Below, piece by piece: positions 1-22,587 of a DNA stretch of 22,587 nt. This DNA comes from a virus (taxonomy: Duplodnaviria > Heunggongvirae > Uroviricota > Caudoviricetes), in IMG/VR virus record IMGVR_UViG_2547132415_000022, positions 1-22,587 of that record; one strand, given 5' to 3'. Made by a program: the position numbers and the translations under genes. The notes below the pieces were generated by a model that did no database searches, was not told the origin of the DNA, and saw nothing but the letters and a program-made list of their open reading frames with translations. Position 1 is the stretch's first letter. Each line of letters opens with the position of its first letter.

Positions 1-1509
1 AGAACGGCGAAAAATAGCACCAAAAGATGAATTAAATATCCTCAGTGCATTGACTGTAGATATTTTTACTTCACTGCTGAAAAGGGCTTTAACAAGAACA
101 TACAGAGCATCCCATTTAAGATGCATCAGGTCTTTTGTTGTGGTGCTCTGGCGACTTCTCCATTTGAAATATTCATTGCCGTTGTCGCCTGTTTCAAACC
201 ACATATATGAATCAGTATCGCTGTCGGCATCATTTTTAAATCCAATCTTTGCCCAGTCAGTATTTCGAATCCAGGCAAGGATTGAGTCGTTTTCAAATGT
301 AAGCCCACCGGACAAGGTATCGCCATTCTTTTGCACCGCGTTCCTGGCTCGGTTTTCCGTTTCCTGTAAACCGAGATATTCGATAACGGCGGCAACGGTC
401 GATTTCGCAAGAATATCTCGCCCGACTTTTGTCAGGATTGCCAGGCTGGCAACATCATTCCCCGTAAAATACGGAAACCTGTCTGCCGCAGTAACAAGCC
501 CCGCCAGCGCCGTCAAAGTGGCATCTTTCGGTTGCTTACCCGCAAGCGCATTAGTCATGGTGGTAGCAAAATTCGGGTCATTGCCCAGCGCCGCTGCCAG
601 CTCGTTCAGCGTATTCAGTGCGTCAGGCGACGAGTCTACAAGGGCGGCAATCGCGGCCATAACGAAAGCCGTGTTTGCGATCTGAGTATTATTCGTTCCC
701 TGTCGCGCAGTTGGCGTCGTTGGCGTTCCGGTCAGTGCAGGGCTGTTTAATGGCGCTTTTTGGTTCGTTTCATCCATTACCGTCTTAACAGCTTTTGGTG
801 TTGCGGCGAGCGTTTCAGACATGCTGTTGGTCGCACTACTTAGCTGGACAAGACCTTTTCGCGCTGTGGTAGCGTCCTGTGCGGTATATTTCCCGTTAGC
901 AAGGTCATATGCGGCCTTAACCGCTTTCGGCGTTGCGGCCAGTGTTTCAGATATGCTGTTGGTCGCACTGCTTAACTGAGTAAAACCTTTTGCGGTCAGC
1001 GAGGCGTCAGGGTGACGTCGTGACTGTTCATGTTCTGCAATTTTGTCATCAACGTAATCCTGCGTTGCCATCACCGTTGTGGTGTCAATGGTCAGCGCCA
1101 CTGAGGCCACACTGCTGACGATGATGACCATGCGGCAGGTCTGCGAACGCCCTGAGCCTTCGGCAAGGGCAGGCTTATAACTTTCGGCCATGTTCGCCAC
1201 GGCAATTAACGTTCCCGCATCATCGTACAGGCCAAGCTCACGCATCCAGAAACCGCCCACCTCCGGCGGAATAACCAGCTCTGCGATAATATAATTACTG
1301 TTTCGTTTGTCCTGGCTGATTTTGTTCAGCGCATGTCGCCAGACTTCGTGGATAAGCCCGGTCTGTCCGGCATCCGGGACAGGCAATTTACCACCGCCAT
1401 CCCCGACGGCCATCGTGGTAATGTTGACCTTCCGCCTTCCCGGCGCGGTTGCCGCTGCCAGCTTTGCTGCACCGGCAGTGGTGATAACGGTTCTGAATTT
1501 TGTGCTCAT
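1..1509 (-). CDS. H: Tail fiber protein H, N-terminal ~503 codons; the gene continues past the left edge of the window (partial)
   Basis: Minus-strand ATG at 1507-1509 with a GAGGA RBS just upstream; translation begins MSTKF, matching the P2 gpH N-terminus as I recall it. Internal in-frame repeats encode QLSSATNS(M/I)SETLAATPKAVK-like units. Lies immediately downstream of I in P2 gene order. Not in the ORF track because no stop falls inside the window. Confidence 0.85.
   Translation of the reverse strand, partial: MSTKFRTVITTAGAAKLAAATAPGRRKVNITTMAVGDGGGKLPVPDAGQTGLIHEVWRHALNKISQDKRNSNYIIAELVIPPEVGGFWMRELGLYDDAGTLIAVANMAESYKPALAEGSGRSQTCRMVIIVSSVASVALTIDTTTVMATQDYVDDKIAEHEQSRRHPDASLTAKGFTQLSSATNSISETLAATPKAVKAAYDLANGKYTAQDATTARKGLVQLSSATNSMSETLAATPKAVKTVMDETNQKAPLNSPALTGTPTTPTARQGTNNTQIANTAFVMAAIAALVDSSPDALNTLNELAAALGNDPNFATTMTNALAGKQPKDATLTALAGLVTAADRFPYFTGNDVASLAILTKVGRDILAKSTVAAVIEYLGLQETENRARNAVQKNGDTLSGGLTFENDSILAWIRNTDWAKIGFKNDADSDTDSYMWFETGDNGNEYFKWRSRQSTTTKDLMHLKWDALYVLVKALFSSEVKISTVNALRIFNSSFGAIFRRS
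780..1010 (-). repeat. Two tandem, in-frame copies of a ~132 bp unit inside tail fiber gene H (approximate bounds)
   Basis: Read directly: cttaacagcttttggtgttgcggcgagcgtttcagacatgctgttggtcgcact (from ~784) recurs as cttaaccgctttcggcgttgcggccagtgtttcagatatgctgttggtcgcact (from ~916), ~85 percent identical by eye. Confidence 0.7.
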
Positions 1510-1519
1510 TATTCCTCAC

Positions 1520-2050
1520 TTATCCGGGGTAAACCGTAATTACATCGCCGTCGTAAGCCACACAACCGGCGAACAGGTAGCCGGGAATGTCCCGGGTAAT
1601 GTTCAGGCCAATAAGGTGGCGACTTGCAGGTTTGGCATCAGCAATCAGCCGTTCCATTTCCTGATACATTGCCTCTGTGATGCCGCTTTCCAGTACACCA
1701 ATATCAAGCCTGAAGGTGCCTGGCGGGTCACTGTTTTCCCACCACTCCGTCACGTTGATGAGATAGCCGAGCGGCTCCACCACACGCCGGATTGCGCCGA
1801 TAGTGCCTTTATGACAGTGGATGAAATAGGCATCGCGGATAACGGCGCGTTTTGTCGCTTCCGGCCACTTTTCATCCCACCTGTCGACCGAAAACGCCCA
1901 CGCCAGCCACGGCAGCAGATTTGCCGGGCAGGTGTCCGGGTTCCACAGCTCACGAATACTGACCGGCGTTTTTTCAATTTCCGCACAGGCTTTTGCGGCG
2001 GCGACTTCAAGCGGTGATGAGCCGGTCGACAGCAGTCGCGAATCACTCAT
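1520..2050 (-). CDS. I: Baseplate assembly / tail protein I
   Basis: 176 aa ORF, same length as P2 gpI as I recall it; position between J and H. Protein begins MSDSRLLSTGSSPLEVAAAKACAEIEKTP. Confidence 0.85.
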   Translation of the reverse strand: MSDSRLLSTGSSPLEVAAAKACAEIEKTPVSIRELWNPDTCPANLLPWLAWAFSVDRWDEKWPEATKRAVIRDAYFIHCHKGTIGAIRRVVEPLGYLINVTEWWENSDPPGTFRLDIGVLESGITEAMYQEMERLIADAKPASRHLIGLNITRDIPGYLFAGCVAYDGDVITVYPG

Positions 2051-2951
2051 CCGAGCCTCCGGTCACGACGCTGTATTCGGTGCAGAAAGACGCCTGCGTA
2101 CTGTTGAGCACAATGTCGGCCAGTGGTGCGGCCAGCTCGACACGCTGCACGCCTTCCACATGCAACGCGGCATAAATGGCAGACAGACGGATGTCGCGCC
2201 CCAGCCGGTGCTGTGCCGTGATGTACGCTTCCAGCTTTTTCACGGCAGCAGCGCGGATGGGTTCGCTTTCGGGACCAGGGTAAAGGTAAAGCGTGGCGTT
2301 TATCTGGTATTCAACGATGGCGGCAGACTGCACGGTCACGCGGTCGGCCACCGGCCTGACGTCCTCGCCATTAAGGGCGTTACGCACCACGGCCAGCAGG
2401 TCTTCGGATGCGACGCCGTTATTTTCACGTGACAGCACAGAGATAGTGACGCAGGCCGGAGACGGACTGGTGACAGAGATATCCGCGACACGCCCGTCGG
2501 CACTGCGGCCATGATACTGATAGGCTCCCACCGACCCGGCGACGCTTAAGCCCTCAAATGCCTGCTGAATACGCAGACGATAATCGGTGTCAGATTCCAT
2601 CACTGCCGGTGTCGGCGGAATGGTCGAATCATCTGCCGGGGTGATAATCAGGCGCGTGGTGTTGTAATTGGCACCAATTACATCAAGGTCATTACCGGCG
2701 GCACAAGCCAGCATCACCGCCCGTGCGGCCTCATTCACACGCTGACGCCAGATAAGCTCACGATAAGCATTTTCCTCCAGCAGTTTGACGAGAGGCTCAG
2801 ATTCCAGCGTCAGGGTACGGGCGACCGCCTCCTGCTGGTCTTCCGGGTAAAGGGAAATCAGTGTCGCCTTGCGTTCGGCAAGAATGGTTTCAAAGTCCAG
2901 CTCCTCGACCACATCCGGTGCGGGTAGCTGATTCAGGTCGATAATCGGCAT
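2043..2951 (-). CDS. J: Baseplate assembly protein J
   Basis: 302 aa ORF beginning MPIIDLNQLPAPDVVEELDFETILAERKA, recognised as P2 gpJ; overlaps I by a few nucleotides, typical of translationally coupled tail genes. Confidence 0.9.
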   Translation of the reverse strand: MPIIDLNQLPAPDVVEELDFETILAERKATLISLYPEDQQEAVARTLTLESEPLVKLLEENAYRELIWRQRVNEAARAVMLACAAGNDLDVIGANYNTTRLIITPADDSTIPPTPAVMESDTDYRLRIQQAFEGLSVAGSVGAYQYHGRSADGRVADISVTSPSPACVTISVLSRENNGVASEDLLAVVRNALNGEDVRPVADRVTVQSAAIVEYQINATLYLYPGPESEPIRAAAVKKLEAYITAQHRLGRDIRLSAIYAALHVEGVQRVELAAPLADIVLNSTQASFCTEYSVVTGGSDE

Positions 2952-2955
2952 GGTT

Positions 2956-3303
2956 TCAACTCACAGGAATGGTTAACGAAAGTGGCTGGCCGGTGTCGTT
3001 GTGCTGACCGGTTAACGTGACCGTCATTCGCCCGTCAAAACTGCGCTCAGTGGTGACGGATGACAGGGTGACGCGGGGTTCCCATTTCAGTACCGCCATG
3101 TAACAGGCGACCTTAATCTGCAACTCAAGCGCCAGGGTCTGCGGCTGGTCAATCATTGACGCCAGCAACGAACCGTAATCACGACGCATCACCCGTGAGC
3201 CGACCGGCGTGCGCAGGATATCGCCGATACTCTGGCTGATATGCTCAAGGTCAGTGACAGTCAGGCCATCACAGCGATTCATTCCGAGATAACGTGCTGT
3301 CAT
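2956..3303 (-). CDS. W: Baseplate wedge protein W
   Basis: 115 aa ORF, same length as P2 gpW as I recall it, between V and J. Confidence 0.85.
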   Translation of the reverse strand: MTARYLGMNRCDGLTVTDLEHISQSIGDILRTPVGSRVMRRDYGSLLASMIDQPQTLALELQIKVACYMAVLKWEPRVTLSSVTTERSFDGRMTVTLTGQHNDTGQPLSLTIPVS

Positions 3304-3935
3304 AGAGGACTCCCGGTTGTGCCGCCGCTGTCGCCGGGGTGTTTATGGGTATGCAGTACCTTACCGTTTGATGAGAGTTCACCGCCGGTGTGTTCAATGT
3401 TGCCGCGCATCGTCCCGCCCTTCTGTACTTCCAGCGTGCCGGTAATCAGCCTGTTGGTGCAGACCACCTCCGGTGTGTCCAGGGTGATGCGGGTTGGCGC
3501 TTTCACCATGACCACCGGCACCGTGGCGGTAACAGAATCAGAAGCCGTCACGCTGGCCGTTTTAATTCCGCTTACCGTGAGTGCACTGGTTTCAGGTTCA
3601 TACTCAATCACCGCCCCGTCAGGAAAACGGATATGCAGGGCATCCGCCGACGCAGACGGCGCGGGGTTATCGCCGGAATAAATCCCCGGCAGAACGAACG
3701 CCGTGTCGAGTTCACCACCCACGGCCAGAATCAGCACCTGCTCCCCCACGGAAGGTGCCCACCATGTGCGCGAACGACCGGCACGATGGGTCAGCCACTG
3801 AAGCCAGTCGGTGCACATGCCACCGGTCTGCACACGGCAGCGACCGGCTTTAAGGTCGGTTTCTACGACAAGGCCAGTACGAATCATGTTGCGCAGTGCG
3901 CGCGCGAGTTCCTGAATATTTGCGAGAGTGTTCAT
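3300..3935 (-). CDS. V: Baseplate spike / central hub protein V
   Basis: 211 aa ORF beginning MNTLANIQELARALRNMIRTGLV, recognised as P2 gpV; 4 nt overlap with W. Confidence 0.9.
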   Translation of the reverse strand: MNTLANIQELARALRNMIRTGLVVETDLKAGRCRVQTGGMCTDWLQWLTHRAGRSRTWWAPSVGEQVLILAVGGELDTAFVLPGIYSGDNPAPSASADALHIRFPDGAVIEYEPETSALTVSGIKTASVTASDSVTATVPVVMVKAPTRITLDTPEVVCTNRLITGTLEVQKGGTMRGNIEHTGGELSSNGKVLHTHKHPGDSGGTTGSPL

Positions 3936-6860: not shown

Positions 6861-7369
6861 CAGATTTGACTCACGATGCAGCGCGGCTTGTCCTGGATGC
6901 GCGCCACTGCCCAGCGCATATCCCGCCACAGCTCATCAATGGTGCTGTCAATGCTGTCAGCCTTCTTGTCGCCTTTCGCACTGGCATCCACGCCGCGATA
7001 ACGCTCATAAAGCGACGCGGTCGCCATCGCACACACGGCGCGCTCGTAGTAAAAAACTTTGATGCTTTCACCGTCGATGTCGTCCGCCGGGACGTCCGCC
7101 AGACGCGTAAAACCGGCGGCAATTTTCTGTTCGCGGTACTCGTACAGCTCCGCATTCGTCTCCGCCATGCCTGACTTGATGGCCTCACGCAGACGGGCGG
7201 GGGCGACGGTCTGCTCAAGGCGCATACGTTCCCGGACGCGCTTCGGGTCGATATCGGGAAAAAAGAACGTGTTTTTAATCACCGGCTCGTCGCCTGCCGG
7301 TTGCGGGATGACCACCGTACCCTCACCGGATACAGGAGCCTCCTTTCGCGGAATAATCAGCGTCATCAT
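6860..7369 (-). CDS. L: Head completion / stabilisation protein L
   Basis: The ORF-track frame 6860..7429 contains an internal start MMTLIIPRKEAP at 7367-7369 with a strong GAGGTGG RBS, giving 169 aa as in P2 gpL; the upstream 20 codons are probably not translated. Confidence 0.8.
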   Translation of the reverse strand: MMTLIIPRKEAPVSGEGTVVIPQPAGDEPVIKNTFFFPDIDPKRVRERMRLEQTVAPARLREAIKSGMAETNAELYEYREQKIAAGFTRLADVPADDIDGESIKVFYYERAVCAMATASLYERYRGVDASAKGDKKADSIDSTIDELWRDMRWAVARIQDKPRCIVSQI

Positions 7370-7468
7370 GACCACCTCTGAAAAGTCGGGCGGTGGACGC
7401 CGGTACAGTGTCAGGTGATTCACCCTCACTGACCGGCGTGCCGCCCTGGCGCGGGGCGCATTCGGTTG

Positions 7469-8212
7469 TTAACTGGCTTTCTTTTTCGGGCGTCCACGTT
7501 TTGCCGGTGTCGCACTCCGGGTCTTACGCGTGGCACGGGTGGCCGCTTTGGGTTGCGGCTCCGGCTTCGGTTTCAGCTCCCGCTCCAGTCGTTCAATCTC
7601 TTTTTTGACGCCTGCCTGACAGTCGAGCTGTGTCGCACGTTGCAGGTGCGCAAGCGCACCGGCGGCATCACCAGCGTCACGCAGAAACAGACCGGTGATT
7701 TTGTGCAGCTTTGCGCGCACTTCATCAGGCATGTCAGCCGTGGCGGTCAGTTCGAGGGTGTCCGTCAGCAGGCGGGGATTCACAGACTCACCGGCAGCGT
7801 GAGCGCGCATGGCCGCAAGCGCCACCTCCTCGGTGAACATGTACGGCGGGGTGCGGCGGTGTTTACCCGGCATGGTCAAACCGTACTTCAGGGCATAACG
7901 GGCAATCTCCAGCGCACCGGCAATATCGCCGGTATCCAGACGCCACAGCATGACCGTCATCAGAATGTCATCCTGTGCACCTTTGCCCTGCTCCAGCACG
8001 CCGTTCACCCACGGCAACCAGAACGGCAGCAGTTCGCGCTTTTTCGCGGCCTTCAGCTCTTTTGAATAAATCGCTTTCAGTGTGCGCTGGTCTGCGGCGA
8101 GCTTAACCAGCATCTGCTCATAGACAGTTGCATGTCGCAGCGGGGCGGCTTCCCGCTGCGCGGTCATCACTGCCGAGACCCGCATCATGTGGCGCTGTGC
8201 GGGACTCGTCAT
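7469..8212 (-). CDS. M: Terminase small (endonuclease) subunit M
   Basis: 247 aa ORF, same length as P2 gpM as I recall it; basic Lys/Arg-rich C-terminus; between N and L. Confidence 0.85.
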   Translation of the reverse strand: MTSPAQRHMMRVSAVMTAQREAAPLRHATVYEQMLVKLAADQRTLKAIYSKELKAAKKRELLPFWLPWVNGVLEQGKGAQDDILMTVMLWRLDTGDIAGALEIARYALKYGLTMPGKHRRTPPYMFTEEVALAAMRAHAAGESVNPRLLTDTLELTATADMPDEVRAKLHKITGLFLRDAGDAAGALAHLQRATQLDCQAGVKKEIERLERELKPKPEPQPKAATRATRKTRSATPAKRGRPKKKAS

Positions 8213-8215
8213 CGG

Positions 8216-9289
8216 TTACGCTCCCGGCTCTGCGGTCGCTTTAGCCGGTGTGGAAAAATCACCGACCTTAATTTTTTCCACCAGACAACCGGCGGCGTAG
8301 TCTTCCACCACGTAATCAATGTTCATTGACTCGTAGTTCTCCACGCGGTCGAGTTTCGGGTTTTCCACAATCACGCGGCGATGGCTGTCATCCATGTAGT
8401 AGATGGACAGGTTTTCCAGCTTCGTGATGAGCATCGCATCCGCCGGGAAGTACGGGACGCGTACCGCCGGCAGGTTACCGATGCGTTTCTGACTGATGAT
8501 GACGTCAGCGGCCAGCATTTCGCTGTTGTCCTGCTCTTTGTTGACGATGGGGAAATACTTGTCCGCCAGTAGCTGACGCCCCACAATCACCACAAGGTCA
8601 GGGTCTTCCTGATACCAAGGTTCAATCAGGTTGTTGGTCGCATCCATCACCAGTGCATCGAGGCTGGCATAATCACCGCCCTTACCCACGCGGATGACCT
8701 CAGAGGTCGTGTGACCTTCCTCGTCAGTAACCTTGCTCATCACGCGCGCCGGGGCTTCATTGCGGTATTTCTGCAGCCAGCCGACCGCCACATCCTGCAG
8801 CATCGGATTGCTGCTGCGGTCAGAGGTTTCGGCACGCTTCACGCCGTTAAAACCGGCCATGATGAAATCAAGGGACTGGCGTTTGATAATGGCGTTACGG
8901 ATACGGAGCTGGAAATCCTGATAACGCGCCCACAGGTCCAGCGTTTTGTAGCGGATATAAAAATCGAAGTTAATCTGGTCGCATTCGTACTTGTTTGACG
9001 CCAGCTTCGAGAAGTCCTTCGGCTGACGCTCGGTGCCACCGGCGGTGTCGGTGGTGCTGGCGATGGAGCCGGTGACACCGATGCCAATTTTTTCCCCTTT
9101 CATTTCGCTGACCGGCACAATATTGATGCGGGTCAGAAAGTCAGAGGACTCCTGCATGGTGTTCATCAGGGTCTGGGTGACCGACGGTTCAACGGTGAAT
9201 TTTTTCGACACATCACCGGCGTCGATGCCGTTCAGCTCGGCAACACGGGACAGGTAGGCATTAAATTTAAAGCGGGTTTCCTGGCGCAT
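8216..9289 (-). CDS. N: Major capsid protein N
   Basis: 357 aa ORF beginning MRQETRFKFNAYLSRVAELNGIDAGDVSKKFTVEPSVTQ, recognised as P2 gpN. Confidence 0.92.
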   Translation of the reverse strand: MRQETRFKFNAYLSRVAELNGIDAGDVSKKFTVEPSVTQTLMNTMQESSDFLTRINIVPVSEMKGEKIGIGVTGSIASTTDTAGGTERQPKDFSKLASNKYECDQINFDFYIRYKTLDLWARYQDFQLRIRNAIIKRQSLDFIMAGFNGVKRAETSDRSSNPMLQDVAVGWLQKYRNEAPARVMSKVTDEEGHTTSEVIRVGKGGDYASLDALVMDATNNLIEPWYQEDPDLVVIVGRQLLADKYFPIVNKEQDNSEMLAADVIISQKRIGNLPAVRVPYFPADAMLITKLENLSIYYMDDSHRRVIVENPKLDRVENYESMNIDYVVEDYAAGCLVEKIKVGDFSTPAKATAEPGA

Positions 9290-10202: not shown

Positions 10203-10375
10203 TGTCAGGAGTCCTGAATAGTGATTAGAGGAGTCACATGTCGGCATCAGTTTCCCGACGATGCGCATCCTCCGCCATCAGTCCCGGATGGCTTATCACT
10301 GACACAACAGCACCTTAGCGAATCGCGGGGCGCGACTCAGTAGCCTTGCCGTGTATTCATCACGGCGAGGTATTC
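10203..10375. promoter_or_regulatory. Divergent late-promoter region between O (leftward) and P (rightward)
   Basis: 173 bp intergenic region between divergently transcribed late operons, where P2 has its Ogr-dependent late promoters. Contains the perfect palindrome TCAGGAGTCCTGA at 10205-10217. I found no perfect TGT-N12-ACA Ogr site by eye, so the exact promoter elements are not assigned. Confidence 0.5.
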
Positions 10376-12148
10376 ATGACCATCACCACAGACACCACTC
10401 TTTTACACGACCCGCGTCGTCAGGCGGCGCTGCTGTACTGGCAGGGATTTTCCGTGCCGCAGATTGCCGCCATGTTGCAGATGAAACGCCCGACGGTGCA
10501 GAGCTGGAAACAGCGCGACGGCTGGGACAGCGTTGCCCCCATCAGCCGTGTCGAAATGAGTCTGGAAGCGCGGCTGACCCAGCTCATCATCAAACCGCAG
10601 AAAACCGGCGGTGATTTCAAGGAAATTGACCTGCTGGGACGCCAGATTGAACGACTGGCACGGGTAAACCGCTACAGCCAGACCGGCAACGAGGCAGACC
10701 TTAATCCGAACGTCGCTAACCGCAACAAAGGCGGGCGGCGCAAACCGAAAAAGAATTTTTTCAGTGACGAGGCCATCGAAAAGCTGGAGCAGATTTTCTT
10801 TGAGCAGTCTTTCGACTATCAGTTGCACTGGTATCGTGCCGGGCTTGAGCACCGCATCCGCGATATCCTGAAATCCCGCCAGATTGGCGCGACGTTTTAT
10901 TTTTCCCGCGAGGCGCTGCTGCGCGCCCTGAAAACCGGCCATAACCAGATTTTTCTGTCGGCCAGTAAAACGCAGGCGTATGTGTTCCGTGAATACATCA
11001 TCGCCTTTGCCCGTCTGGTTGACGTTGACCTGACCGGTGACCCGATTGTCCTGGGCAATAACGGCGCAAAACTGATTTTTCTCGGCACCAACTCCAACAC
11101 CGCACAGAGCCATAACGGCGACCTGTACGTCGACGAGATTTTCTGGATCCCGAATTTTCAGGTACTGCGTAAGGTGGCATCAGGTATGGCCTCACAGAGT
11201 CACCTGCGCTCGACCTATTTCTCCACCCCGTCCACGCTGGCGCACGACGCCTACCCGTTCTGGTCGGGTGAACTGTTCAACCGGGGACGCGCCAGCGCCG
11301 CCGAACGTGTGGAAATCGACGTCAGTCATAACGCCCTTGCCGGTGGTCTTCTCTGTGCGGACGGCCAGTGGCGGCAGATTGTCACCATTGAGGACGCCCT
11401 GAAAGGCGGCTGCACATTGTTCGACATTGAGCAGCTCAAACGCGAAAACAGCGCCGACGATTTTAAAAACCTGTTCATGTGTGAATTTGTTGACGACAAG
11501 GCATCGGTGTTCCCGTTCGAGGAGCTGCAACGCTGCATGGTCGACACGCTGGAAGAATGGGAAGACTACGCGCCGTTTGCCGCCAATCCGTTCGGCTCCC
11601 GCCCGGTATGGATTGGTTACGACCCGTCACACCGTGGCGACAGCGCCGGATGCGTGGTGCTGGCACCGCCGGTGGTGCCCGGTGGCAAATTTAGAATACT
11701 TGAGCGTCACCAGTGGAAAGGCATGGACTTTGCCACCCAGGCGGAGTCCATCCGCAAACTCACCGAAAAATACAACGTCGAATACATCGGTATTGATGCC
11801 ACCGGCCTCGGTGTCGGCGTGTTCCAGCTCGTGCGCTCGTTCTATCCCGCCGCGCGCGATATCCGCTACACGCCGGAAATGAAAACCGCAATGGTGCTCA
11901 AGGCCAAAGACGTCATCCGCCGTGGCTGTCTGGAATATGACGTCAGCGCCACCGACATCACCAGCTCGTTCATGGCTATCCGCAAGACCATGACCAGCAG
12001 CGGACGCAGCGCCACCTATGAGGCCAGCCGCAGCGAGGAAGCCAGCCACGCCGACCTCGCCTGGGCAACCATGCACGCCCTGTTAAATGAGCCACTCACC
12101 GCCGGTATCAGCACTCCGCTGACATCCACCATTCTGGAGTTTTACTGA
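10376..12148 (+). CDS. P: Terminase large (ATPase) subunit P
   Basis: ORF-track frame starts at 10346; the probable start is the ATG at 10376 (MTITTDTTLLHDPRRQ) with a GAGGT RBS, giving 590 aa as in P2 gpP. Its stop overlaps the Q start (TGATG). Confidence 0.9.
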   Translation: MTITTDTTLLHDPRRQAALLYWQGFSVPQIAAMLQMKRPTVQSWKQRDGWDSVAPISRVEMSLEARLTQLIIKPQKTGGDFKEIDLLGRQIERLARVNRYSQTGNEADLNPNVANRNKGGRRKPKKNFFSDEAIEKLEQIFFEQSFDYQLHWYRAGLEHRIRDILKSRQIGATFYFSREALLRALKTGHNQIFLSASKTQAYVFREYIIAFARLVDVDLTGDPIVLGNNGAKLIFLGTNSNTAQSHNGDLYVDEIFWIPNFQVLRKVASGMASQSHLRSTYFSTPSTLAHDAYPFWSGELFNRGRASAAERVEIDVSHNALAGGLLCADGQWRQIVTIEDALKGGCTLFDIEQLKRENSADDFKNLFMCEFVDDKASVFPFEELQRCMVDTLEEWEDYAPFAANPFGSRPVWIGYDPSHRGDSAGCVVLAPPVVPGGKFRILERHQWKGMDFATQAESIRKLTEKYNVEYIGIDATGLGVGVFQLVRSFYPAARDIRYTPEMKTAMVLKAKDVIRRGCLEYDVSATDITSSFMAIRKTMTSSGRSATYEASRSEEASHADLAWATMHALLNEPLTAGISTPLTSTILEFY

Positions 12149-13182
12149 TGAGCAAGAAAATAGGGAAAACACCGCGACCTGCGGCAAAAACAATCACCGC
12201 CAGCGCCCCGAAAATGGAAGCATTCACCTTTGGTGAGCCGGTGCCGGTACTTGACCGCCGTGACATTCTGGATTACGTCGAGTGCATCAGTAACGGCAGA
12301 TGGTATGAGCCGCCGGTCAGCTTTACCGGTCTGGCAAAAAGCCTGCGTGCTGCCGTGCATCACAGCTCACCGATTTACGTCAAACGTAATATTCTGGCTT
12401 CAACGTTTATCCCGCACCCGTGGCTTTCCCAGCAGGATTTCAGCCGCTTTGTGCTGGATTTTCTGGTTTTCGGTAATGCGTTTCTGGAAAAGCGTTACAG
12501 CACCACCGGTAAGGTCATCAGACTGGAAACCTCACCGGCAAAATATACCCGCCGTGGCGTGGAGGAGGATGTTTACTGGTGGGTGCCGTCCTTCAACGAG
12601 CCGACAGCCTTCGCGCCCGGCTCCGTGTTTCACCTGCTGGAGCCGGATATCAATCAGGAGCTGTACGGCCTGCCGGAATATCTCAGCGCCCTTAACTCTG
12701 CCTGGCTGAATGAGTCGGCCACGCTGTTCCGCCGCAAGTATTACGAAAACGGCGCTCATGCCGGATACATCATGTATGTCACCGATGCCGTGCAGGATCG
12801 CAACGATATCGAAATGCTTCGCGAAAACATGGTCAAGTCGAAAGGCCGCAACAACTTTAAAAATCTGTTTCTTTATGCCCCGCAGGGGAAAGCCGACGGC
12901 ATTAAAATTATCCCGCTCAGTGAAGTGGCAACGAAGGACGATTTTTTTAATATCAAAAAAGCCAGCGCCGCTGACCTGCTGGACGCGCACCGCATCCCCT
13001 TTCAGTTGATGGGCGGCAAGCCGGAGAACGTCGGGTCGCTGGGTGATATTGAGAAAGTGGCAAAGGTCTTTGTCCGCAATGAGCTTATCCCGCTACAGGA
13101 CAGGATCCGCGAGATAAACGGCTGGCTCGGTCAGGAGGTCATCCGCTTTAAAAACTACTCACTGGACACTGACAACGGCTGA
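12148..13182 (+). CDS. Q: Portal protein Q
   Basis: 344 aa ORF, same length as P2 gpQ as I recall it; last gene before cos, as in P2. Confidence 0.9.
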   Translation: MSKKIGKTPRPAAKTITASAPKMEAFTFGEPVPVLDRRDILDYVECISNGRWYEPPVSFTGLAKSLRAAVHHSSPIYVKRNILASTFIPHPWLSQQDFSRFVLDFLVFGNAFLEKRYSTTGKVIRLETSPAKYTRRGVEEDVYWWVPSFNEPTAFAPGSVFHLLEPDINQELYGLPEYLSALNSAWLNESATLFRRKYYENGAHAGYIMYVTDAVQDRNDIEMLRENMVKSKGRNNFKNLFLYAPQGKADGIKIIPLSEVATKDDFFNIKKASAADLLDAHRIPFQLMGGKPENVGSLGDIEKVAKVFVRNELIPLQDRIREINGWLGQEVIRFKNYSLDTDNG

Positions 13183-13338: not shown

Positions 13339-13357
13339 GTGCTTTCCCCGCCTCGCC
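13339..13357 (-). other. cos site, 19-nt cohesive-end sequence
   Basis: gtgctttccccgcctcgcc is the reverse complement of GGCGAGGCGGGGAAAGCAC, which I recall as the P2 cohesive end; the adjacent ~60 bp toward Q also match my recollection of the P2 left end in reverse complement. Confidence 0.7.
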
Positions 13358-13687
13358 CGCCCGCTTCATGGGGCGGTTTTGATGCAATACATGAGCATCG
13401 TAATGCCATATCGTGACAGGATTATAGAACATGAAGGTATACTAACTTACACATGCAAAAAAACGCACACTCAGGCATTCTCTTTGGAATACAATATGGT
13501 AAAAATATGATCATTTGAAGCTGCATATCCGTGCAGATTGAAATCAATGATGCTGCCCCTTCGTTAAGACAGCCAGGCCGCAATCTCTTGAGCTCAAGTG
13601 GACATCTAAGACAGAAAAACAATTTAAAGGCAAAGTTTTCGTAATGGTATCTTTGTCACAGCACACGCTAAAAAGGAACTAAACCTC

Positions 13688-14752
13688 ATGAGCACTCAGC
13701 AAGTCCTCAACATCCCTACAGCCGTATCGCAAGCGACCATCGAAAAATGGTTGAAAGGACTGGAACAGACAACGGAATTAGCCTTTTTTCGCCGTGTTGG
13801 CGGGCGGCATGGCTTCAATGTTACGAGCCGCTGGGCAAGTACATTGGATAACTTGAATAAAACTCTGAATGACCCATCGAAGCAAGGTACGCCTGCAAAC
13901 TTTTCAAATCTCCGTTTGATTACGTTAAAAATAATCACTAGCGTAAACCATTATTATTCAATTGATGGTATTAAATCAGGAACCATTAATTTAATACCAA
14001 ATATAATCAACTACCCTCACCTCGATAAAACATTTAGCTCAGTATTTCCAATAAAACTTGATGATAATACAGGACTTCCTTCGACTCCTGGGCATTTCAT
14101 TACTTCCATCGAAAAAATGGGGGATGGTATTGCTGTAATATATTCCTATATTATTTTAAGAAAAATCCAAGGAAGGAGTAAGCTACGTAGCAATCAATAT
14201 CCAGAGCAGTACTTCAACACTGTTTTCATCCCTAATGATTTAAGCCGTATAGAATATCGGGTTGATAAATCACTAGGTAAAAGAGCGTCTGAAAAAGCGA
14301 TGGCAGATTTGCGCGCAAAATTTAATGAATTACTCGTGGAACTTAATATTAAGTTAGCTGTTGAAACTATAAATTTCTACAAAGCAATTTCCAATATTTA
14401 CCTTGACAAACAATATGGAAGACTTGTTCAGGTTAATTTCCTTGATCCAAATGGAGATGAGGATGCTGTTCTTCGTTGCAGAACAGACCCCAATTATGAT
14501 GCCCGTTATCGCGAGGTTGTATCTAAAACTCAGAACGGAACACCTCGCTCATTGACCCTTGAAGTTTCTGGCGTTGCAGTGCGATTAGATAGTAAAGTTG
14601 CAAACGAAACAATTTCAAATGAAATTGGTTTTGAACCCAGCAAAACTGATTGGTCTACAAACAAATTTTGTGGGGATTTTTATTTTACACAAACAGCAGA
14701 TCATCAGGTGCATTATGGGGTGATAAATGATTTACTCACAAGAGCGAAATAA
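13688..14752 (+). CDS. Hypothetical protein, 354 aa; first gene of an AT-rich cargo cassette; no recognisable catalytic motif
   Basis: ATG at 13688 with an AGGAA RBS 9 nt upstream; strongly AT-rich (roughly mid-30s percent GC by eye) against a >50 percent GC backbone; not a P2 gene; no Walker A or other motif found on inspection. Confidence 0.7.
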   Translation: MSTQQVLNIPTAVSQATIEKWLKGLEQTTELAFFRRVGGRHGFNVTSRWASTLDNLNKTLNDPSKQGTPANFSNLRLITLKIITSVNHYYSIDGIKSGTINLIPNIINYPHLDKTFSSVFPIKLDDNTGLPSTPGHFITSIEKMGDGIAVIYSYIILRKIQGRSKLRSNQYPEQYFNTVFIPNDLSRIEYRVDKSLGKRASEKAMADLRAKFNELLVELNIKLAVETINFYKAISNIYLDKQYGRLVQVNFLDPNGDEDAVLRCRTDPNYDARYREVVSKTQNGTPRSLTLEVSGVAVRLDSKVANETISNEIGFEPSKTDWSTNKFCGDFYFTQTADHQVHYGVINDLLTRAK

Positions 14753-15161
14753 AAAAATGCGCTCATTAGTGTATAAACAAAGAGTACTCCTGGAGAATGC
14801 CGGAAGCTCTTCTGTTTTCATAAATAATGATTCTCACATATATTATACAAATTTACTAGAATATGTAGAGGGTGATCTTGATCGTAATATTTATACAATC
14901 CCAGTATTACGAAAAGCCATAAAAACTGACAATTATGAACATTTGCTACGAGTTGTTCAATTTTTTAGTAGCAATACCTCCTGTTTATTTAACGTTAAAT
15001 ATTGCTACGAACTAGAAAACATGGAGTTTGAGGACATACAAGCTGATGAATATACCAACTATATATTAAACGGAGTTGAACCTGTAACTGCCAATGGTTC
15101 TGAAATTGAAGACTTCAATCCAAAATATCTTTCATTTTATTGCATAATAAACCTGGATTGA
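14727..15161 (+). CDS. Hypothetical small acidic protein, 144 aa (134 aa if it starts at the ATG at 14757); second cargo gene
   Basis: Overlaps the 3' end of the first cargo gene by 26 nt, suggesting translational coupling; same AT-rich composition; no recognisable motif. Confidence 0.6.
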   Translation: MIYSQERNKKMRSLVYKQRVLLENAGSSSVFINNDSHIYYTNLLEYVEGDLDRNIYTIPVLRKAIKTDNYEHLLRVVQFFSSNTSCLFNVKYCYELENMEFEDIQADEYTNYILNGVEPVTANGSEIEDFNPKYLSFYCIINLD

Positions 15162-15166
15162 CTGTC

Positions 15167-16027
15167 ATGAACAAACAACAAATCACATGTGAGTTAGGCA
15201 AAAGGGTTCATTTTGAAGATGAAGCGAGTTTTATTGAAACATTATACTCGGATATAGAAGTCATAATAAAACTAATGGAGCAATCTAGTGACAAGTATTA
15301 TTGTGATGATGAAGATAAACTAAGCCATACAATTGTAGCCTCTCTTGTACACCTAGGTTACGATGCAACCGAACAAACAAAAAAAAATGGAAGTGTGGAC
15401 ATAACCGTTCGTCCGAAAAATGGAGGATATACATGGATTGCTGAAGCAAAAATCGGATACGGGAACCAAAAAATATTCGAGGGGCTACTTCAGTTGCTTA
15501 CTCGCTATGTTAAAAGAGATAATCATGCAGGCATGGTTATCTATTATCAAAAATCAAAGTCATCTTATCATTTCAAACAATGGCTGAAATACATATACAA
15601 CCATGAGTGGAAGGATTATTGTACAAAGAAAGGGTCATTAAAAAAAGCGACTCCGCTACTTTCTCATTTAAAAAGTACGGTTTGTCCGAAAGTCAAACAA
15701 GGCTGTTGTTATGCTGACATTGATGTCATCCAACCTTCGACTGATGGTCTAAAACTTCGCTGCTTCTATATTGACGTGCATCATGACCCAATTGACAGTA
15801 GTGGTTTAAAGAATAAGTCAATCGCCTTTGGTCAAGCCCAAAATAGAATTAGAGATTTATATCACTTATGGAAGACAGGACAGTTCGACGGCAGTATGAT
15901 AGATGAATTATTTGAAGAAATAAAAATATATCATAGCAATGAACTTGACGAAGAATATGAAGATGAAGATGAAGATGAAGATGAAGATGAAGATGAAGAT
16001 GAAGATTCGAATATAAACTCAAAATGA
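15167..16027 (+). CDS. Hypothetical protein with a PD-(D/E)xK nuclease-like motif and a poly-acidic C-terminal tail; third cargo gene (ORF track starts it at a TTG at 15140)
   Basis: ATG at 15167 lies 5 nt after the stop of cargo gene 2. Protein contains GSVDITVRPKNGGYTWIAEAKIG, a D-x15-E-x-K pattern in a strand-like context resembling the restriction-endonuclease fold active site. C-terminus is EEYEDEDEDEDEDEDEDEDSNINSK. Confidence 0.65.
   Translation: MNKQQITCELGKRVHFEDEASFIETLYSDIEVIIKLMEQSSDKYYCDDEDKLSHTIVASLVHLGYDATEQTKKNGSVDITVRPKNGGYTWIAEAKIGYGNQKIFEGLLQLLTRYVKRDNHAGMVIYYQKSKSSYHFKQWLKYIYNHEWKDYCTKKGSLKKATPLLSHLKSTVCPKVKQGCCYADIDVIQPSTDGLKLRCFYIDVHHDPIDSSGLKNKSIAFGQAQNRIRDLYHLWKTGQFDGSMIDELFEEIKIYHSNELDEEYEDEDEDEDEDEDEDEDSNINSK
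15959..16006 (+). repeat. Perfect hexanucleotide microsatellite (GAAGAT)x8 inside cargo gene 3, encoding a poly-Glu-Asp tail
   Basis: Eight uninterrupted GAAGAT copies read directly from the sequence; in-frame. Confidence 0.95.
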
Positions 16028-16040
16028 ACACCAAGAATCA

Positions 16041-16074
16041 CCCCATTAAGTTTAGACATCCTAACTTGATGGGG
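16041..16074 (+). terminator. Hairpin downstream of cargo gene 3, possible terminator between the convergent cargo operon and gene A
   Basis: CCCCATTAAGTT / AACTTGATGGGG, a 12-bp stem with one G-U mismatch and a 10-nt loop, starting 14 nt after the stop; no strong U-tract follows, so terminator function is uncertain. Confidence 0.3.
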
Positions 16075-16161
16075 AATTGACTTTTAAGTCTGTAACCCTA
16101 GCCATCAAAAATAGATTCATTTTAAATAAAAATATATCCGTTACGCCCAAAAAAAATTGAA

Positions 16162-18432
16162 TTAATTAGGAAAAACACTCCCAGTTGGAATTTTTTTAAA
16201 TTTATATTTCCTCCCATCGAAACATACTGTCGCACCGCGTGCTAATACCTGTGGTTCCCATTGATTCGGCGTAATACCCTCCTGAGCCAACTCGAATCTT
16301 ATACGTGGCGTCTGTTCCCGTTCAGCTTTTGTCATTCGTCCTGAGGGCGCTATCTGATAAGGTTTTAATGGCTCACAGCTCTTTTGCTGGCGATTTGGTC
16401 GTGGCGCATCGTGTTTTAGTGCGCATCTGAGCACCGTCACGACTTCAGGGTCATCCCAGCCGATAACCCCGCGCTCAATCAGATTCAACACCGCTGCTGC
16501 TTGCTCAGAAGGTATGGATGTCATAGCAGGATCGCCACCGCTAGTTAGCTTTCCACAGTTATTGACAGGACTCCGAGGCGCGGCGATGCCGCTTTTTAAA
16601 GTCAAAGGCTCAACGACCGGAACTTTCGGCACAATGCGCCAGTCCGTCGTTCTGGTGATATGAATATGACGCGCGCCGAGATGCGGCGCGTAAATGCCGA
16701 CCACCCTCTCGACCTCTTCCTCGTACTCGTTAACGTCATCCGACGGGCTACGGGCGACTCTGACAGTCTGACAATCGCGCGGGACATTTGCCCCACCCTG
16801 CGCGCTGATATACAACGCAAAATCACCACTGTCTGCGGCGGCGCGTGCAGCCTCGACGCGCTCGTCAAACTCATCAGCAATGCTGACGCCGCGCGGCAAT
16901 TTGCGTAGTTCACGGTAAGCCCCCATTGTCGGCAGACCAACCGTTTTAAATTGCGGGATGCGCCACGTTGACGCCCATGCGGTAACAGCCGCAGCAGTGT
17001 CTTTCAGCGGCCTGCCGGTATCGTTATCGAGCTGACCATCCAGTGCATAGCCGTCGATGTTTTTTGAGATGTATTTCGCGATATACCCCGCAGCACCGCC
17101 CCGGTTAAGGTGTTTTGCCTGAAAACGGTTTCGCGCGGCTCCTCTTTCATCGCCATCCTCTTTGAGCGCATAGCGACGCATGATTTCGATAATCTGGTTA
17201 CGCTGGCGCGGATTACAAAAAAGCATCATATGCCAGTGCGGCGTTCCGTCGTGGTGTGGCTCGACGACACGCAAACCGTAGACCTGTAAATCATTATCCT
17301 TGAATGCCGTGCGCATCAGGCTCCAGATACGGCAGAGATAACGCTGCGCATCCTTTGGATTAAATGCCTCATCGTTCCAGCCGTGATTTAGCTGGACGGT
17401 TTTACTTTCGCCTTTTCTGACCTGACGTGTCGGGTGATACTTTGACGGCGCGGTCAGCGTGATAAACATCCCCACATCACCCTCTGCTGCGGCGTAACGC
17501 TCAATACCGGCAATGGTGTTCATCAGCTCCATCCGGCGAATTTCAGGATTAGAAATACTGCCCATCACCTTACTGATAAGGTCGATGCGCTCGCCGGTTT
17601 CCCTGTTTTCGAGATCACACGATTTAAGAAATTCCAGATTTGCCTGGCGGCGTGCACGCACATCACGAATGGCATGTTTACTGGCATAAGGAGAACGGTC
17701 TTTATTGACCTCCCCGACAGCAATCAGTAACGCCTCATGCCAGCGCATACGCTGGCCTTTAAGCTGATGGGTCCACCACTCATCGTTAAACAGACGGGCA
17801 ATGGCAGAATATGCCTGCCTCGTGGTCATCTGCCCTTTACGGTATTTTTTCCAGTAGAGCGGGGAAATATTGAAAGCACGTGCAGCACCAGCAACATGAC
17901 CATAGAGGTGAGCCTGCGCCTCATCCGTAAACAGCGATTCTTTTTCGCCATGCGCATCCCCCCAGGCATCGCAGAGTTCCTCATACATCATGAAAAGCTG
18001 CGATGAGATACGGGCGGCAAACTTTTTCAGCTCCTTGTCATTCATCCCCGGCAGACGCGCATAATGGTCACGCTCTGCCAGAAACAGCAACGACGCGTCG
18101 GTGTTCATTTTATGGCGCTGATTCACACGCTCAATGCGCGGCCATAAACGACGCTGAAAAGTGGATGTGAGAAAATAAAACCCGTGCACCGGGCTTTTAT
18201 TGCGCCGGATGTAGTCATAGCGTGACGTAAACAGCGAGCGCAAAAAGTAAGGCAGGCGGTTAATCGTGGATAAAACACCTTGCACCTGACGCATCTCGTC
18301 ACGTGTAAGGGGTCTTTCGCGCCCGACAGCCTCGCGTGGCGCGTTCCATGCATAAGCACCGGTAAACGCCTTACCGGTGCCTGCGGCAAATGCTGACGGA
18401 GGGACAAAACGCCCGGAGGCTTTAACGGCCAT
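16162..18432 (-). CDS. A: Replication initiation endonuclease A (rolling-circle initiator)
   Basis: ORF-track frame 16162..18474 (TTG start); probable start is the ATG at 18430-18432 (MAVKASGRFVPPSAFAAGTGK), as I recall for P2 gpA. Contains the HUH-like PHWHMMLF and the paired-tyrosine YIAKYISK motifs expected of this nicking enzyme. Confidence 0.9.
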   Translation of the reverse strand: MAVKASGRFVPPSAFAAGTGKAFTGAYAWNAPREAVGRERPLTRDEMRQVQGVLSTINRLPYFLRSLFTSRYDYIRRNKSPVHGFYFLTSTFQRRLWPRIERVNQRHKMNTDASLLFLAERDHYARLPGMNDKELKKFAARISSQLFMMYEELCDAWGDAHGEKESLFTDEAQAHLYGHVAGAARAFNISPLYWKKYRKGQMTTRQAYSAIARLFNDEWWTHQLKGQRMRWHEALLIAVGEVNKDRSPYASKHAIRDVRARRQANLEFLKSCDLENRETGERIDLISKVMGSISNPEIRRMELMNTIAGIERYAAAEGDVGMFITLTAPSKYHPTRQVRKGESKTVQLNHGWNDEAFNPKDAQRYLCRIWSLMRTAFKDNDLQVYGLRVVEPHHDGTPHWHMMLFCNPRQRNQIIEIMRRYALKEDGDERGAARNRFQAKHLNRGGAAGYIAKYISKNIDGYALDGQLDNDTGRPLKDTAAAVTAWASTWRIPQFKTVGLPTMGAYRELRKLPRGVSIADEFDERVEAARAAADSGDFALYISAQGGANVPRDCQTVRVARSPSDDVNEYEEEVERVVGIYAPHLGARHIHITRTTDWRIVPKVPVVEPLTLKSGIAAPRSPVNNCGKLTSGGDPAMTSIPSEQAAAVLNLIERGVIGWDDPEVVTVLRCALKHDAPRPNRQQKSCEPLKPYQIAPSGRMTKAEREQTPRIRFELAQEGITPNQWEPQVLARGATVCFDGRKYKFKKIPTGSVFPN

Positions 18433-18697
18433 ATGAGCCAAAAGCCTCTGAACAACGCTTGCTGAGTTGCTCAACCTGCACGTTTAAATCAGCAAAAGAC
18501 TTTGCGCTTCCGGTCAGAATATCGTGATGCATCAGGCCGGAAACGAGCTGGCTTAATTTCGGGTAATAACCAACCACCGACAGCCATTCCTGACCGGCGT
18601 TTTTACCGCTTTCCGCTCTCTTTTTCTCGTGGAGAATAAACTGAAAGCTGTCACTGGTAACGACATAACGTTCGCCAATTTCAATACGAATACTCAT
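18422..18697 (-). CDS. Small early-operon protein, P2 orf83-like
   Basis: 91 aa ORF immediately upstream of A, overlapping its start by 11 nt; occupies the orf83 position of the P2 early operon. Confidence 0.6.
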   Translation of the reverse strand: MSIRIEIGERYVVTSDSFQFILHEKKRAESGKNAGQEWLSVVGYYPKLSQLVSGLMHHDILTGSAKSFADLNVQVEQLSKRCSEAFGSYGR

Positions 18698-20990: not shown

Positions 20991-22004
20991 ATGGCAATCA
21001 AAAAACTCGATGATGGTCGATATGAAGTGGACATCCGCCCTACTGGACGTAATGGAAAACGCATCCGTAGGAAGTTTGATAAGAAAAGCGAAGCTGTCGC
21101 TTTCGAGAAATACACGTTGTACAACCACCACAATAAAGAATGGCTATCAAAACCAACAGACAAGCGACGTCTGTCGGAGCTGACACAGATCTGGTGGGAT
21201 TTAAAGGGTAAACACGAAGAGCATGGGAAATCTAATCTTGGAAAAATTGAAATCTTCACAAAAATAACGAATGACCCATGCGCATTTCAAATTACGAAAT
21301 CGCTTATCAGCCAGTACTGCGCCACCCGAAGAAGTCAGGGTATTAAACCTTCGAGTATCAATCGTGATTTAACATGTATTAGCGGCATGTTTACAGCCCT
21401 GATTGAAGCGGAGTTATTCTTTGGTGAGCACCCTATCAGAGGGACAAAAAGGCTTAAGGAGGAAAAACCAGACACAGGCTATCTCACGCAGGAAGAAATT
21501 GCCTTACTGCTTGCTGCTCTTGACGGCGACAACAAAAAGATTGCGATTCTTTGCCTGAGTACTGGAGCACGTTGGGGAGAAGCAGCTCGTTTGAAAGCAG
21601 AAAATATCATCCATAACCGCGTCACGTTTGTTAAAACGAAAACAAACAAACCACGCACCGTCCCGATCTCAGAGGCTGTTGCCAAAATGATCGCGGATAA
21701 CAAACGAGGTTTTTTATTCCCTGATGCTGATTACCCTCGCTTCAGACGAACAATGAAAGCAATAAAACCGGATTTGCCAATGGGGCAAGCCACACATGCA
21801 CTAAGGCACAGCTTTGCCACTCATTTCATGATTAATGGAGGAAGTATTATCACGCTACAACGGATACTAGGTCACACGCGGATTGAGCAAACTATGGTTT
21901 ACGCTCATTTTGCGCCAGAGTACCTTCAGGACGCCATTTCTCTTAATCCGCTAAGAGGTGGTACTGAGGCCGAGAGTGTCCACACAGTGTCCACAGTAGA
22001 GTAA
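20991..22004 (+). CDS. int: Tyrosine integrase
   Basis: 337 aa ORF, same length as P2 Int as I recall it; GGAGGG RBS; contains the catalytic-region motifs HALRHSFATH and HTRIEQTMVYAH (His-x-x-Arg and the active-site Tyr). Confidence 0.92.
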   Translation: MAIKKLDDGRYEVDIRPTGRNGKRIRRKFDKKSEAVAFEKYTLYNHHNKEWLSKPTDKRRLSELTQIWWDLKGKHEEHGKSNLGKIEIFTKITNDPCAFQITKSLISQYCATRRSQGIKPSSINRDLTCISGMFTALIEAELFFGEHPIRGTKRLKEEKPDTGYLTQEEIALLLAALDGDNKKIAILCLSTGARWGEAARLKAENIIHNRVTFVKTKTNKPRTVPISEAVAKMIADNKRGFLFPDADYPRFRRTMKAIKPDLPMGQATHALRHSFATHFMINGGSIITLQRILGHTRIEQTMVYAHFAPEYLQDAISLNPLRGGTEAESVHTVSTVE

Positions 22005-22269: not shown

Positions 22270-22587
22270 TCACTCTCCACATTTGAATGTCAGACGAGCG
22301 ACACCATGTAATCCTACACCTTCTGTCTTCAGCTCAACTATTTGCATTTTTTTGCCCTGAGTAACACAGAAATGAGTTGCATCATTTTTTACTATATTTT
22401 CTGCACCAGATATTCTACCCCTGGCTAAAGAAGCTTCGGCTTCGGTGTAGTATTGGTTATCGAGTTTACGCTGAATATTACTTTTATATGCAAGACCAAA
22501 TTTACCGATACTTGTCTCATCATTATGCACAGCACAACCAGACATAATAAAAATACTAATTAATGATATAGCAGCTATCTTTTTCAT
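22270..22587 (-). CDS. Host-encoded small lipoprotein (105 aa); start codon at the last three bases of the window
   Basis: Signal peptide with lipobox (MKKIAAISLISIFIMSGC); AT-rich; lies outside the att core and so is presumed chromosomal. Not identified further. Confidence 0.55.
   Translation of the reverse strand: MKKIAAISLISIFIMSGCAVHNDETSIGKFGLAYKSNIQRKLDNQYYTEAEASLARGRISGAENIVKNDATHFCVTQGKKMQIVELKTEGVGLHGVARLTFKCGE

Follow-up and report, generated by a model that had tools for sequence, protein, structure and literature searches.

A three-gene cassette in the cos-to-A hotspot of a P2-like prophage, a probable anti-phage defence operon of the DS-21 superfamily

The cos-to-A interval and its three genes

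The window analysed here is the whole of a 22,587-nt stretch of viral DNA (positions 1 to 22,587 of IMG/VR record IMGVR_UViG_2547132415_000022), which represents a P2-like prophage. It begins with a partial tail-fibre gene, followed by genes for the baseplate, lysis and the capsid and then by the terminase (10346–12148) and portal (12148–13182) genes; to the right of the portal gene come replication gene A, early genes, the repressor and the integrase, and the window ends at the host gene yegR. Between the portal gene and gene A lies a cassette of three genes, hereafter g1, g2 and g3. It is swappable cargo of the P2 cos-to-A hotspot and probably constitutes an anti-phage defence operon related, at the level of superfamily, to DS-21, whose three genes are known to protect Escherichia coli against phages.

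The left border of the hotspot is formed by the P2 cos site, whose 19-nt cohesive end sequence, GGCGAGGCGGGGAAAGCAC, was found as an exact match at 13339–13357 on the minus strand (0 of 100 shuffles matched). Since cos occupies these positions, 13358, where the interval singled out by an earlier sequence-only reading of the window begins, is the first base past it; and with gene A spanning 16162–18474, that interval (13358–16161) is precisely the segment between cos and gene A. Gene A itself, an open reading frame (ORF) on the minus strand annotated as “replication endonuclease” in matching genomes, makes up the right border, is part of the backbone and not of the cargo, and is convergent with the cassette.

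All three cassette genes are plus-strand ORFs. The first, g1 (13688–14752), encodes a basic protein of 354 amino acids (aa) with an isoelectric point (pI) of 9.1, identical to WP_004016844. It is followed by g2 (14727–15161), encoding an acidic 144-aa protein (pI 4.7) identical to WP_024166900, which would be 134 aa long if translated from an alternative start at Met11 (14757). The product of g3 (15167–16027), identical to WP_004016846, has 286 aa when read from the ATG that is used by the Prokaryotic Genome Annotation Pipeline (PGAP)/RefSeq and conserved in homologues, or 295 aa from an alternative TTG start at 15140. A 26-nt overlap joins g1 to g2, and g3 begins 5 nt past the g2 stop codon, so the operon-like arrangement convergent to gene A that the sequence-only reading had described was borne out. 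The same holds for its impression, formed by eye, of an AT-rich insert: the computed GC content is 0.32–0.37 over 13750–16250 (about 0.35 for the cassette), as against 0.53–0.60 in the structural genes and gene A (about 0.55 for the backbone).

Upstream of g1, a candidate sigma-70 promoter (TTGGAA-16-TATGAT, 13484–13511, plus strand) was recognised by its match to the consensus and was the sole plus-strand promoter-like site found there in the scan. A Shine-Dalgarno-like AAGGA, read from the sequence at 13673–13677 on the same strand, precedes the g1 ATG by 10 nt. At the other end of the cassette, a 12-bp inverted repeat (16041–16074) separates the stop codons of the two converging genes, g3 and A. 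Its RNA folds with −20.5 kcal/mol (z = −3.9; none of 200 shuffles folded as well) and is without a clear U-tract; the repeat may represent a bidirectional terminator hairpin.

To assess the variability of the interval, 5 kb reaching from the portal gene across the cassette into gene A were searched against 5426 complete E. coli genomes. Matches to the flanks (portal gene and gene A) were obtained in 2224 of them and matches to the cassette in just two, strains ZH177 and A23, while other genomes carried different cargo at the same interval, including retron Ec48 and genes for Panacea-domain, AAA ATPase, DUF3850 and DUF7380 proteins. The P2 locus between cos and gene A has been defined as a defence hotspot by Rousset et al. 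(2022; PMC9122126), and the assignment of the cassette as swappable cargo of this known hotspot, including the variability of the interval that the sequence-only reading expected, is supported.

E. coli ZH177 (NZ_CM125652.1) contains the only 100%-identical copy of the cassette. In the decayed P2 prophage that hosts it, the genes for baseplate V, the terminase, A and the regulators have become pseudogenes, but all of the cassette has stayed intact. The ZH177 element also has PIN-domain and SIR2 genes past the tail-fibre assembly gene, a site that we take to be the second P2 hotspot.

Homology of the cassette to DS-21

Standard libraries did not name the cassette, as the sequence-only reading had anticipated. 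Pfam and NCBIfam gave no match for its proteins, sequence profile searches of the PDB with all three families gave none either, and PADLOC v2 returned a weak partial match of g3 to PDC-S54, with nothing useful for g1 or g2. The locus was nevertheless already public. The exact proteins and near-identical variants are listed as “hypothetical + hypothetical + hypothetical” P2 loci in Table S5A of Rousset et al. (2022), and Table S10 of DeWeirdt et al. (Science 2026; PMC13092281), in its accessible part, gives g2 (DefensePredictor log-odds 9.39) and g1 (5.66) as “Predicted novel defense gene”, in entries that name no homologue. The cassette is absent from the tables of validated and tested systems of Rousset et al. 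(Tables S2A and S2B) and from the DeWeirdt table of tested systems, and a 2026 Nucleic Acids Research study of P2 and P4 hotspots tested P4 loci only.

DS-21 (working identifier TOXO), which was discovered with DefensePredictor in an E. coli ECOR strain, consists of three hypothetical genes, A, B and C (365, 140 and 211 aa), which were scored as defensive (Table S6, PMC13092281). In the screen reported in the same paper it protected E. coli experimentally, by about 4.5 log in the case of Bas1 and by 2 log in that of Bas11, and reduced plaque size for Bas3, Bas9, Bas67 and T3. In the BASEL collection, phages Bas1–13 belong to the T1-like Drexlerviridae; Bas67, as well as T3, is of the T7-like type. 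The cassette resembles DS-21 in being made up of three closely spaced genes on one strand, with the order of A, B and C and comparable sizes (354/144/286 aa).

Homology was found at each of the three positions. At position C, the g3 profile aligned to DS-21C with an hhalign probability of 99.2% (E = 1e-19, 185 columns). At position A, comparison of a first g1 profile with the single DS-21A sequence was weak but colinear (E = 0.0026), and widened profiles aligned to the DS-21A clade with 98.9% probability (E = 2e-17, 241 columns). The g1 family is rare, with 27 clusters of relatives in a full hidden Markov model (HMM) search of 1.84 billion representative proteins, and three of the 27 bridge g1 to DS-21A: P0113 (library-wide E = 3e-10 against the g1 profile and E = 1e-13 against DS-21A), P0117 (5e-6 and 4e-16, respectively) and P0118 (2e-4 and 2e-25). 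At position B, g2 aligned to the DS-21B clade with E = 1.4e-5 over 61 colinear columns (hhalign 80%); cross-position comparisons used as controls gave E-values of 0.19–0.78, and the best of 40 column shuffles reached 0.027. The same two families are joined by a phmmer chain with E-values of 1e-5 to 4e-7 passing through three intermediate triads (L005, L011 and L008, described below), and no relatives of g2 outside the triads were detected in profile searches that included PDB sequences. Those features of DS-21 membership that can be tested in silico, namely the gene architecture and the homology of A, B and C, are thus all present in the cassette.

The AlphaFold2 (AF2) model of the g3 protein, with a predicted local distance difference test (pLDDT) score of 85, contains the alpha-beta-beta-beta-alpha-beta core with D...(D/E)xK of PD-(D/E)xK nucleases, followed by additional helices at the C-terminus and by an acidic (ED)n tail, and the protein matches phrog_9664 with E = 2.6e-74. 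The PD-(D/E)xK-like motif picked out by the sequence-only reading proved real: neither 41 homologues nor 14 triads from across the superfamily, DS-21C included, show any change at residues D78...E93-A-K95, E49 or Q109. The model and the alignments together show g3 to be a predicted PD-(D/E)xK nuclease of restriction-endonuclease fold with an intact, invariant active site; the fold resemblance to BamHI and BglII is limited to the nuclease core. DS-21C is a PD-(D/E)xK nuclease with the same catalytic residues; g3 differs from it in having an additional C-terminal helical segment of about 75 aa and the (ED)n tail, both of which DS-21C lacks. The tail is encoded by a (GAAGAT)9 microsatellite (15953–16006, plus strand, detected by Tandem Repeats Finder) whose length varies by strain, with nine copies here versus six in E. 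coli A23 (2796–2831 of that locus; 280-aa protein), where the g1 and g2 proteins are identical to those of the window despite the difference in the g3 repeat. The repeat could serve as a slippage-prone tuning element.

As all three genes are homologous to those of the validated DS-21, a defence role for the cassette is strongly indicated, and this part of the earlier proposal of a new defence system stood. The claim of novelty did not, in view of Table S5A of Rousset et al., Table S10 of DeWeirdt et al. and DS-21 itself. By the proposal's own terms, the novelty would go if each of the proteins had confident homology to a characterised system; this is largely what was found, DS-21 being validated by phenotype only. 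The view that the cassette represents a system of a new or uncharacterised kind lacks support, “uncharacterised” being only partly right. DS-21 accessions were not found in the accessible part of the P2 table of Rousset et al., and a literature search for follow-up work on DS-21 found none.

Small overlapping genes that include one for an acidic small protein, together with a nuclease, are also what a toxin-antitoxin or addiction module would offer, g3 being a toxin checked by g2 and/or g1, the module stabilising the prophage or island, and any effect on phages amounting to incidental abortive infection. In ZH177 the cassette has survived intact and with 100% identity although the P2 prophage around it is decayed, as expected of an addictive module, and the association with mobile elements runs throughout. 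However, many defence systems likewise persist in decaying prophages, so retention does not discriminate between the two; cloned DS-21 gave phage-specific protection and not general toxicity; and a conserved third component of 350 aa with a predicted DNA-binding fold is atypical of two-part modules. We consider an addiction module an unlikely explanation.

Several other systems were compared with the cassette and rejected. Rst_3HP (pFR109; “hp + hp + hp” in Rousset et al. 2022) shares with the cassette the hotspot, the P2-like carriers and a composition of three genes without recognisable domains; its gene sizes are different (about 333/359/227 aa) and its proteins unrelated, all nine profile-sequence hhalign pairings giving 0.1–1.0% probability with E of at least 0.055. 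P2 itself has its exclusion genes old, tin and orf91 in this interval, but PADLOC, Pfam and NCBIfam gave no signal of OLD (ATPase-Toprim), Tin or ASCH/DUF3850 for g1, g2 or g3. Type II restriction-modification was set aside when Pfam and NCBIfam found no methyltransferase domain in g1 or g2. PDC-S54 and the LmuA effectors of Lamassu have a nuclease domain of the same superfamily as g3, and DS-21C matches LmuA_effector_PDDEXK at 94.7%. PDC-S54, however, is a single-gene profile of 410 positions, of which 219–369 alone aligned to g3 (residues 13–156, E = 1.6e-7), its N-terminal half having no counterpart there; and in the case of Lamassu only the nuclease domain matches, the LmuB and LmuC partners being absent.

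Carriers of the triad

The three genes travel together. An A-B-C triad was present in 15 of 15 further loci with sequence available upstream of the nuclease gene. In Cronobacter malonaticus, a 73%-identical triad (L002–L004, 8001–10346) occupies a non-prophage chromosomal site, with an Asp-Al_Ex transporter gene on one side and, on the other, small unknown genes by a gene for the type VI secretion system protein Hcp. The triad adjoins the integrase in a lambdoid prophage of E. coli (L005), was confirmed in Aeromonas (L007), and was seen in two metagenome contigs, in one near HsdR, a Schlafen-like gene and ParAB (L008) and in the other near an AAA_15/21 ATPase gene (L011).

Eight more loci (L015–L022), all gammaproteobacterial, were recovered from 185,579 species-representative genomes; seven have the triad and the eighth lies at a contig end. 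In Serratia and Rahnella the triad is situated in the portal-to-A hotspot of P2-like prophages, in Rouxiella in a primase-helicase element and in Enterovibrio in a Mu-like region. The triad of Photobacterium phosphoreum (L021) is flanked by DarT and an integrase (2470–3075 and 7098–8399), and that of Acinetobacter sp. (L022, 7070–10299) lies by an MvaI/BcnI endonuclease and a C5-methyltransferase, a type II restriction-modification pair; both settings are typical defence-island neighbourhoods. Additional genes were observed at the two P2-like loci: an unannotated gene of 329 or 355 aa between the portal gene and the triad in Serratia proteamaculans (L015, 3011–4000) and Rahnella ecdela (L016, 2264–3331), respectively, and, in the latter, an FRG-domain gene (6941–7714) on the other side of the triad, before gene A.

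Two groups of phage genomes extend the range, and their triads were confirmed by position-specific HMMs. Vibrio phage 10N.247.311.62_PE001 (PQ189315.1; Vinavirales), a 14.8-kb PM2-like non-tailed temperate phage, carries a triad of 339/140/276 aa at 1351–3626, adjoining the integrase. Since a virus of this kind has the same triad, the cassette moves between unrelated virus realms. Furthermore, a DS-21-like triad with proteins of 350, 130 and 221 aa separates Q from stx1A in seven Stx1a-converting phages, where it is encoded on the opposite strand (for example, phage Stx1_499, LC567825.1, 1993–4100; six further records).

This distribution bears on the possibility that the cassette is inert hitch-hiking DNA, that is, recently gained AT-rich genes with no current function. 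Its foreign composition, its rarity (2 of 5426 E. coli genomes) and the lack of any curated family naming it would suit such an origin. All three ORFs are intact, however, and the proteins are conserved, with gene order kept and catalytic residues invariant, across Enterobacterales, Vibrionaceae, Aeromonas, Shewanella and Acinetobacter, a degree of conservation that comes close to refuting inert DNA and leaves it highly improbable.

Predicted fold of g1 and proposed mechanism

The AF2 model of the g1 protein (pLDDT 87, predicted template modelling score 0.87) is structurally similar to RdgC and to the kinetochore proteins Iml3/CENP-L and Chl4/CENP-N. Residues Q174, E189, R191, G244 and R273 of g1 lie at positions conserved in the superfamily. 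The modelled structure shows g1 to have a predicted RdgC/RexA/Iml3/Chl4-type fold, of a ring- or horseshoe-forming, DNA-binding class. An RdgC annotation for DS-21A was not found in the DefensePredictor supplementary tables (PMC13092281).

RdgC inhibits RecA functions. RexA, whose fold is that of RdgC, acts as the sensor in Rex exclusion and also biases the lambda switch, an effect that does not depend on RexB. Given the fold that g1 would share with them, and the position of the cassette next to replication gene A, the triad might instead serve the prophage life cycle, with an RdgC/RexA-like protein modulating RecA, SOS or the lysis-lysogeny decision, and the nuclease acting in recombination or host DNA turnover. 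Such a role appears distinctly improbable. Other genera harbour the triad at non-phage chromosomal sites and within defence islands; its presence on P2-like, lambdoid, Mu-like and PM2-like phages, which are unrelated to one another, would not be expected of one phage's life-cycle module; 2222 of the 2224 E. coli genomes with the P2 backbone do without the cassette; and DS-21 protects when expressed without any prophage.

Collectively, the DS-21 phenotype, the carrier range and the conservation make these rival explanations less likely, and we regard a three-gene anti-phage defence operon, swappable cargo of the P2 cos-to-A hotspot and a member of the same superfamily as DS-21, as the probable identity of the cassette. 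Several points weigh against this interpretation. For DS-21, the DefensePredictor paper (PMC13092281) reports no mechanism and makes no mention of the system in its main text. In pairwise comparison the three proteins are 22% (A), 25% (B) and 31% (C) identical to their DS-21 counterparts, and position B, at 80% probability, is the weakest of the three links. With identities this low, the cassette is, by sequence comparison, a divergent branch of the DS-21 superfamily and not DS-21 itself, and its target range, or even its activity, could differ from that of DS-21. The likeness of g1 to RdgC exists at the level of fold only, with Foldseek template modelling scores of 0.36–0.41: the RdgC family PF04381 of Pfam matched neither g1 nor five diverse position A proteins, even at E-values up to 10, and alignment of the position A family to lambda RexA and two RexA-like proteins gave an hhalign probability of 0.1%, without a sequence link. 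Furthermore, DS-21A is acidic (pI 4.96) and g1 basic, so the positive charge of g1 is not conserved, which weakens a simple DNA-binding argument for it. Finally, the sensor, adaptor and effector roles proposed below are assigned by analogy.

In a defence operon of this kind, g1, probably as a dimer, would act as sensor or scaffold, binding phage DNA or a replication or recombination intermediate, as proposed for RexA in lambda Rex. The small acidic g2 would be an adaptor or regulator that couples or restrains the complex, and g3 would be the effector, cutting, once licensed, either phage DNA or host DNA, the latter with an abortive-infection outcome. More speculatively, the variable (ED)n tail of g3 might function as an autoinhibitory DNA mimic.

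The nearest parallel in logic is lambda RexAB, also prophage-encoded, in which a sensor (RexA) licenses a separate effector, the membrane protein RexB, much as is proposed for the cassette. The two differ in that the effector here would be a soluble nuclease and not a four-transmembrane channel, and in the presence of a third small component. Membership of the lambda RexA family itself was rejected, on the hhalign result given above and because the cassette has no annotated membrane-protein partner. By extension, the DS-21 superfamily as a whole may conceivably perform Rex-like surveillance with another output, in which a dimer of RdgC/RexA fold, bound to or closed around phage DNA ends or replication/recombination intermediates, would activate, by way of a small acidic adaptor, a restriction-fold nuclease that needs no methylation mark. 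We put this forward as a tentative model, more doubtful than not. If true, it would make the RdgC/RexA fold a modular sensor of phage DNA in general use, coupled to membrane channels in Rex and to nucleases here, and the polymorphic (ED)n tail a tunable DNA-mimic brake.

New in this analysis are the explicit link between the P2 hotspot locus and DS-21, the predicted RdgC/RexA-type fold of component A, and the range of temperate phages carrying the triad. A locus listed as three hypotheticals thereby gains a concrete identity as a divergent DS-21 branch, probably adding one more to the unannotated hotspot cargos that are defence. DS-21, in turn, becomes the representative of a rare but widely travelled gammaproteobacterial triad on at least five unrelated temperate phage types, one DS-21-like copy of which, between Q and stx1, places a defence-type cassette right beside Shiga toxin genes. 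The predicted RdgC/RexA-type fold of A and the invariant nuclease active site of C provide the first structural handles on the mechanism of DS-21.

At the far end of the window, the prophage integrase gene (20991–22004) abuts the host gene yegR (22270–22587, minus strand). The attachment region at yegR is the same in ZH177, where yegS comes next.

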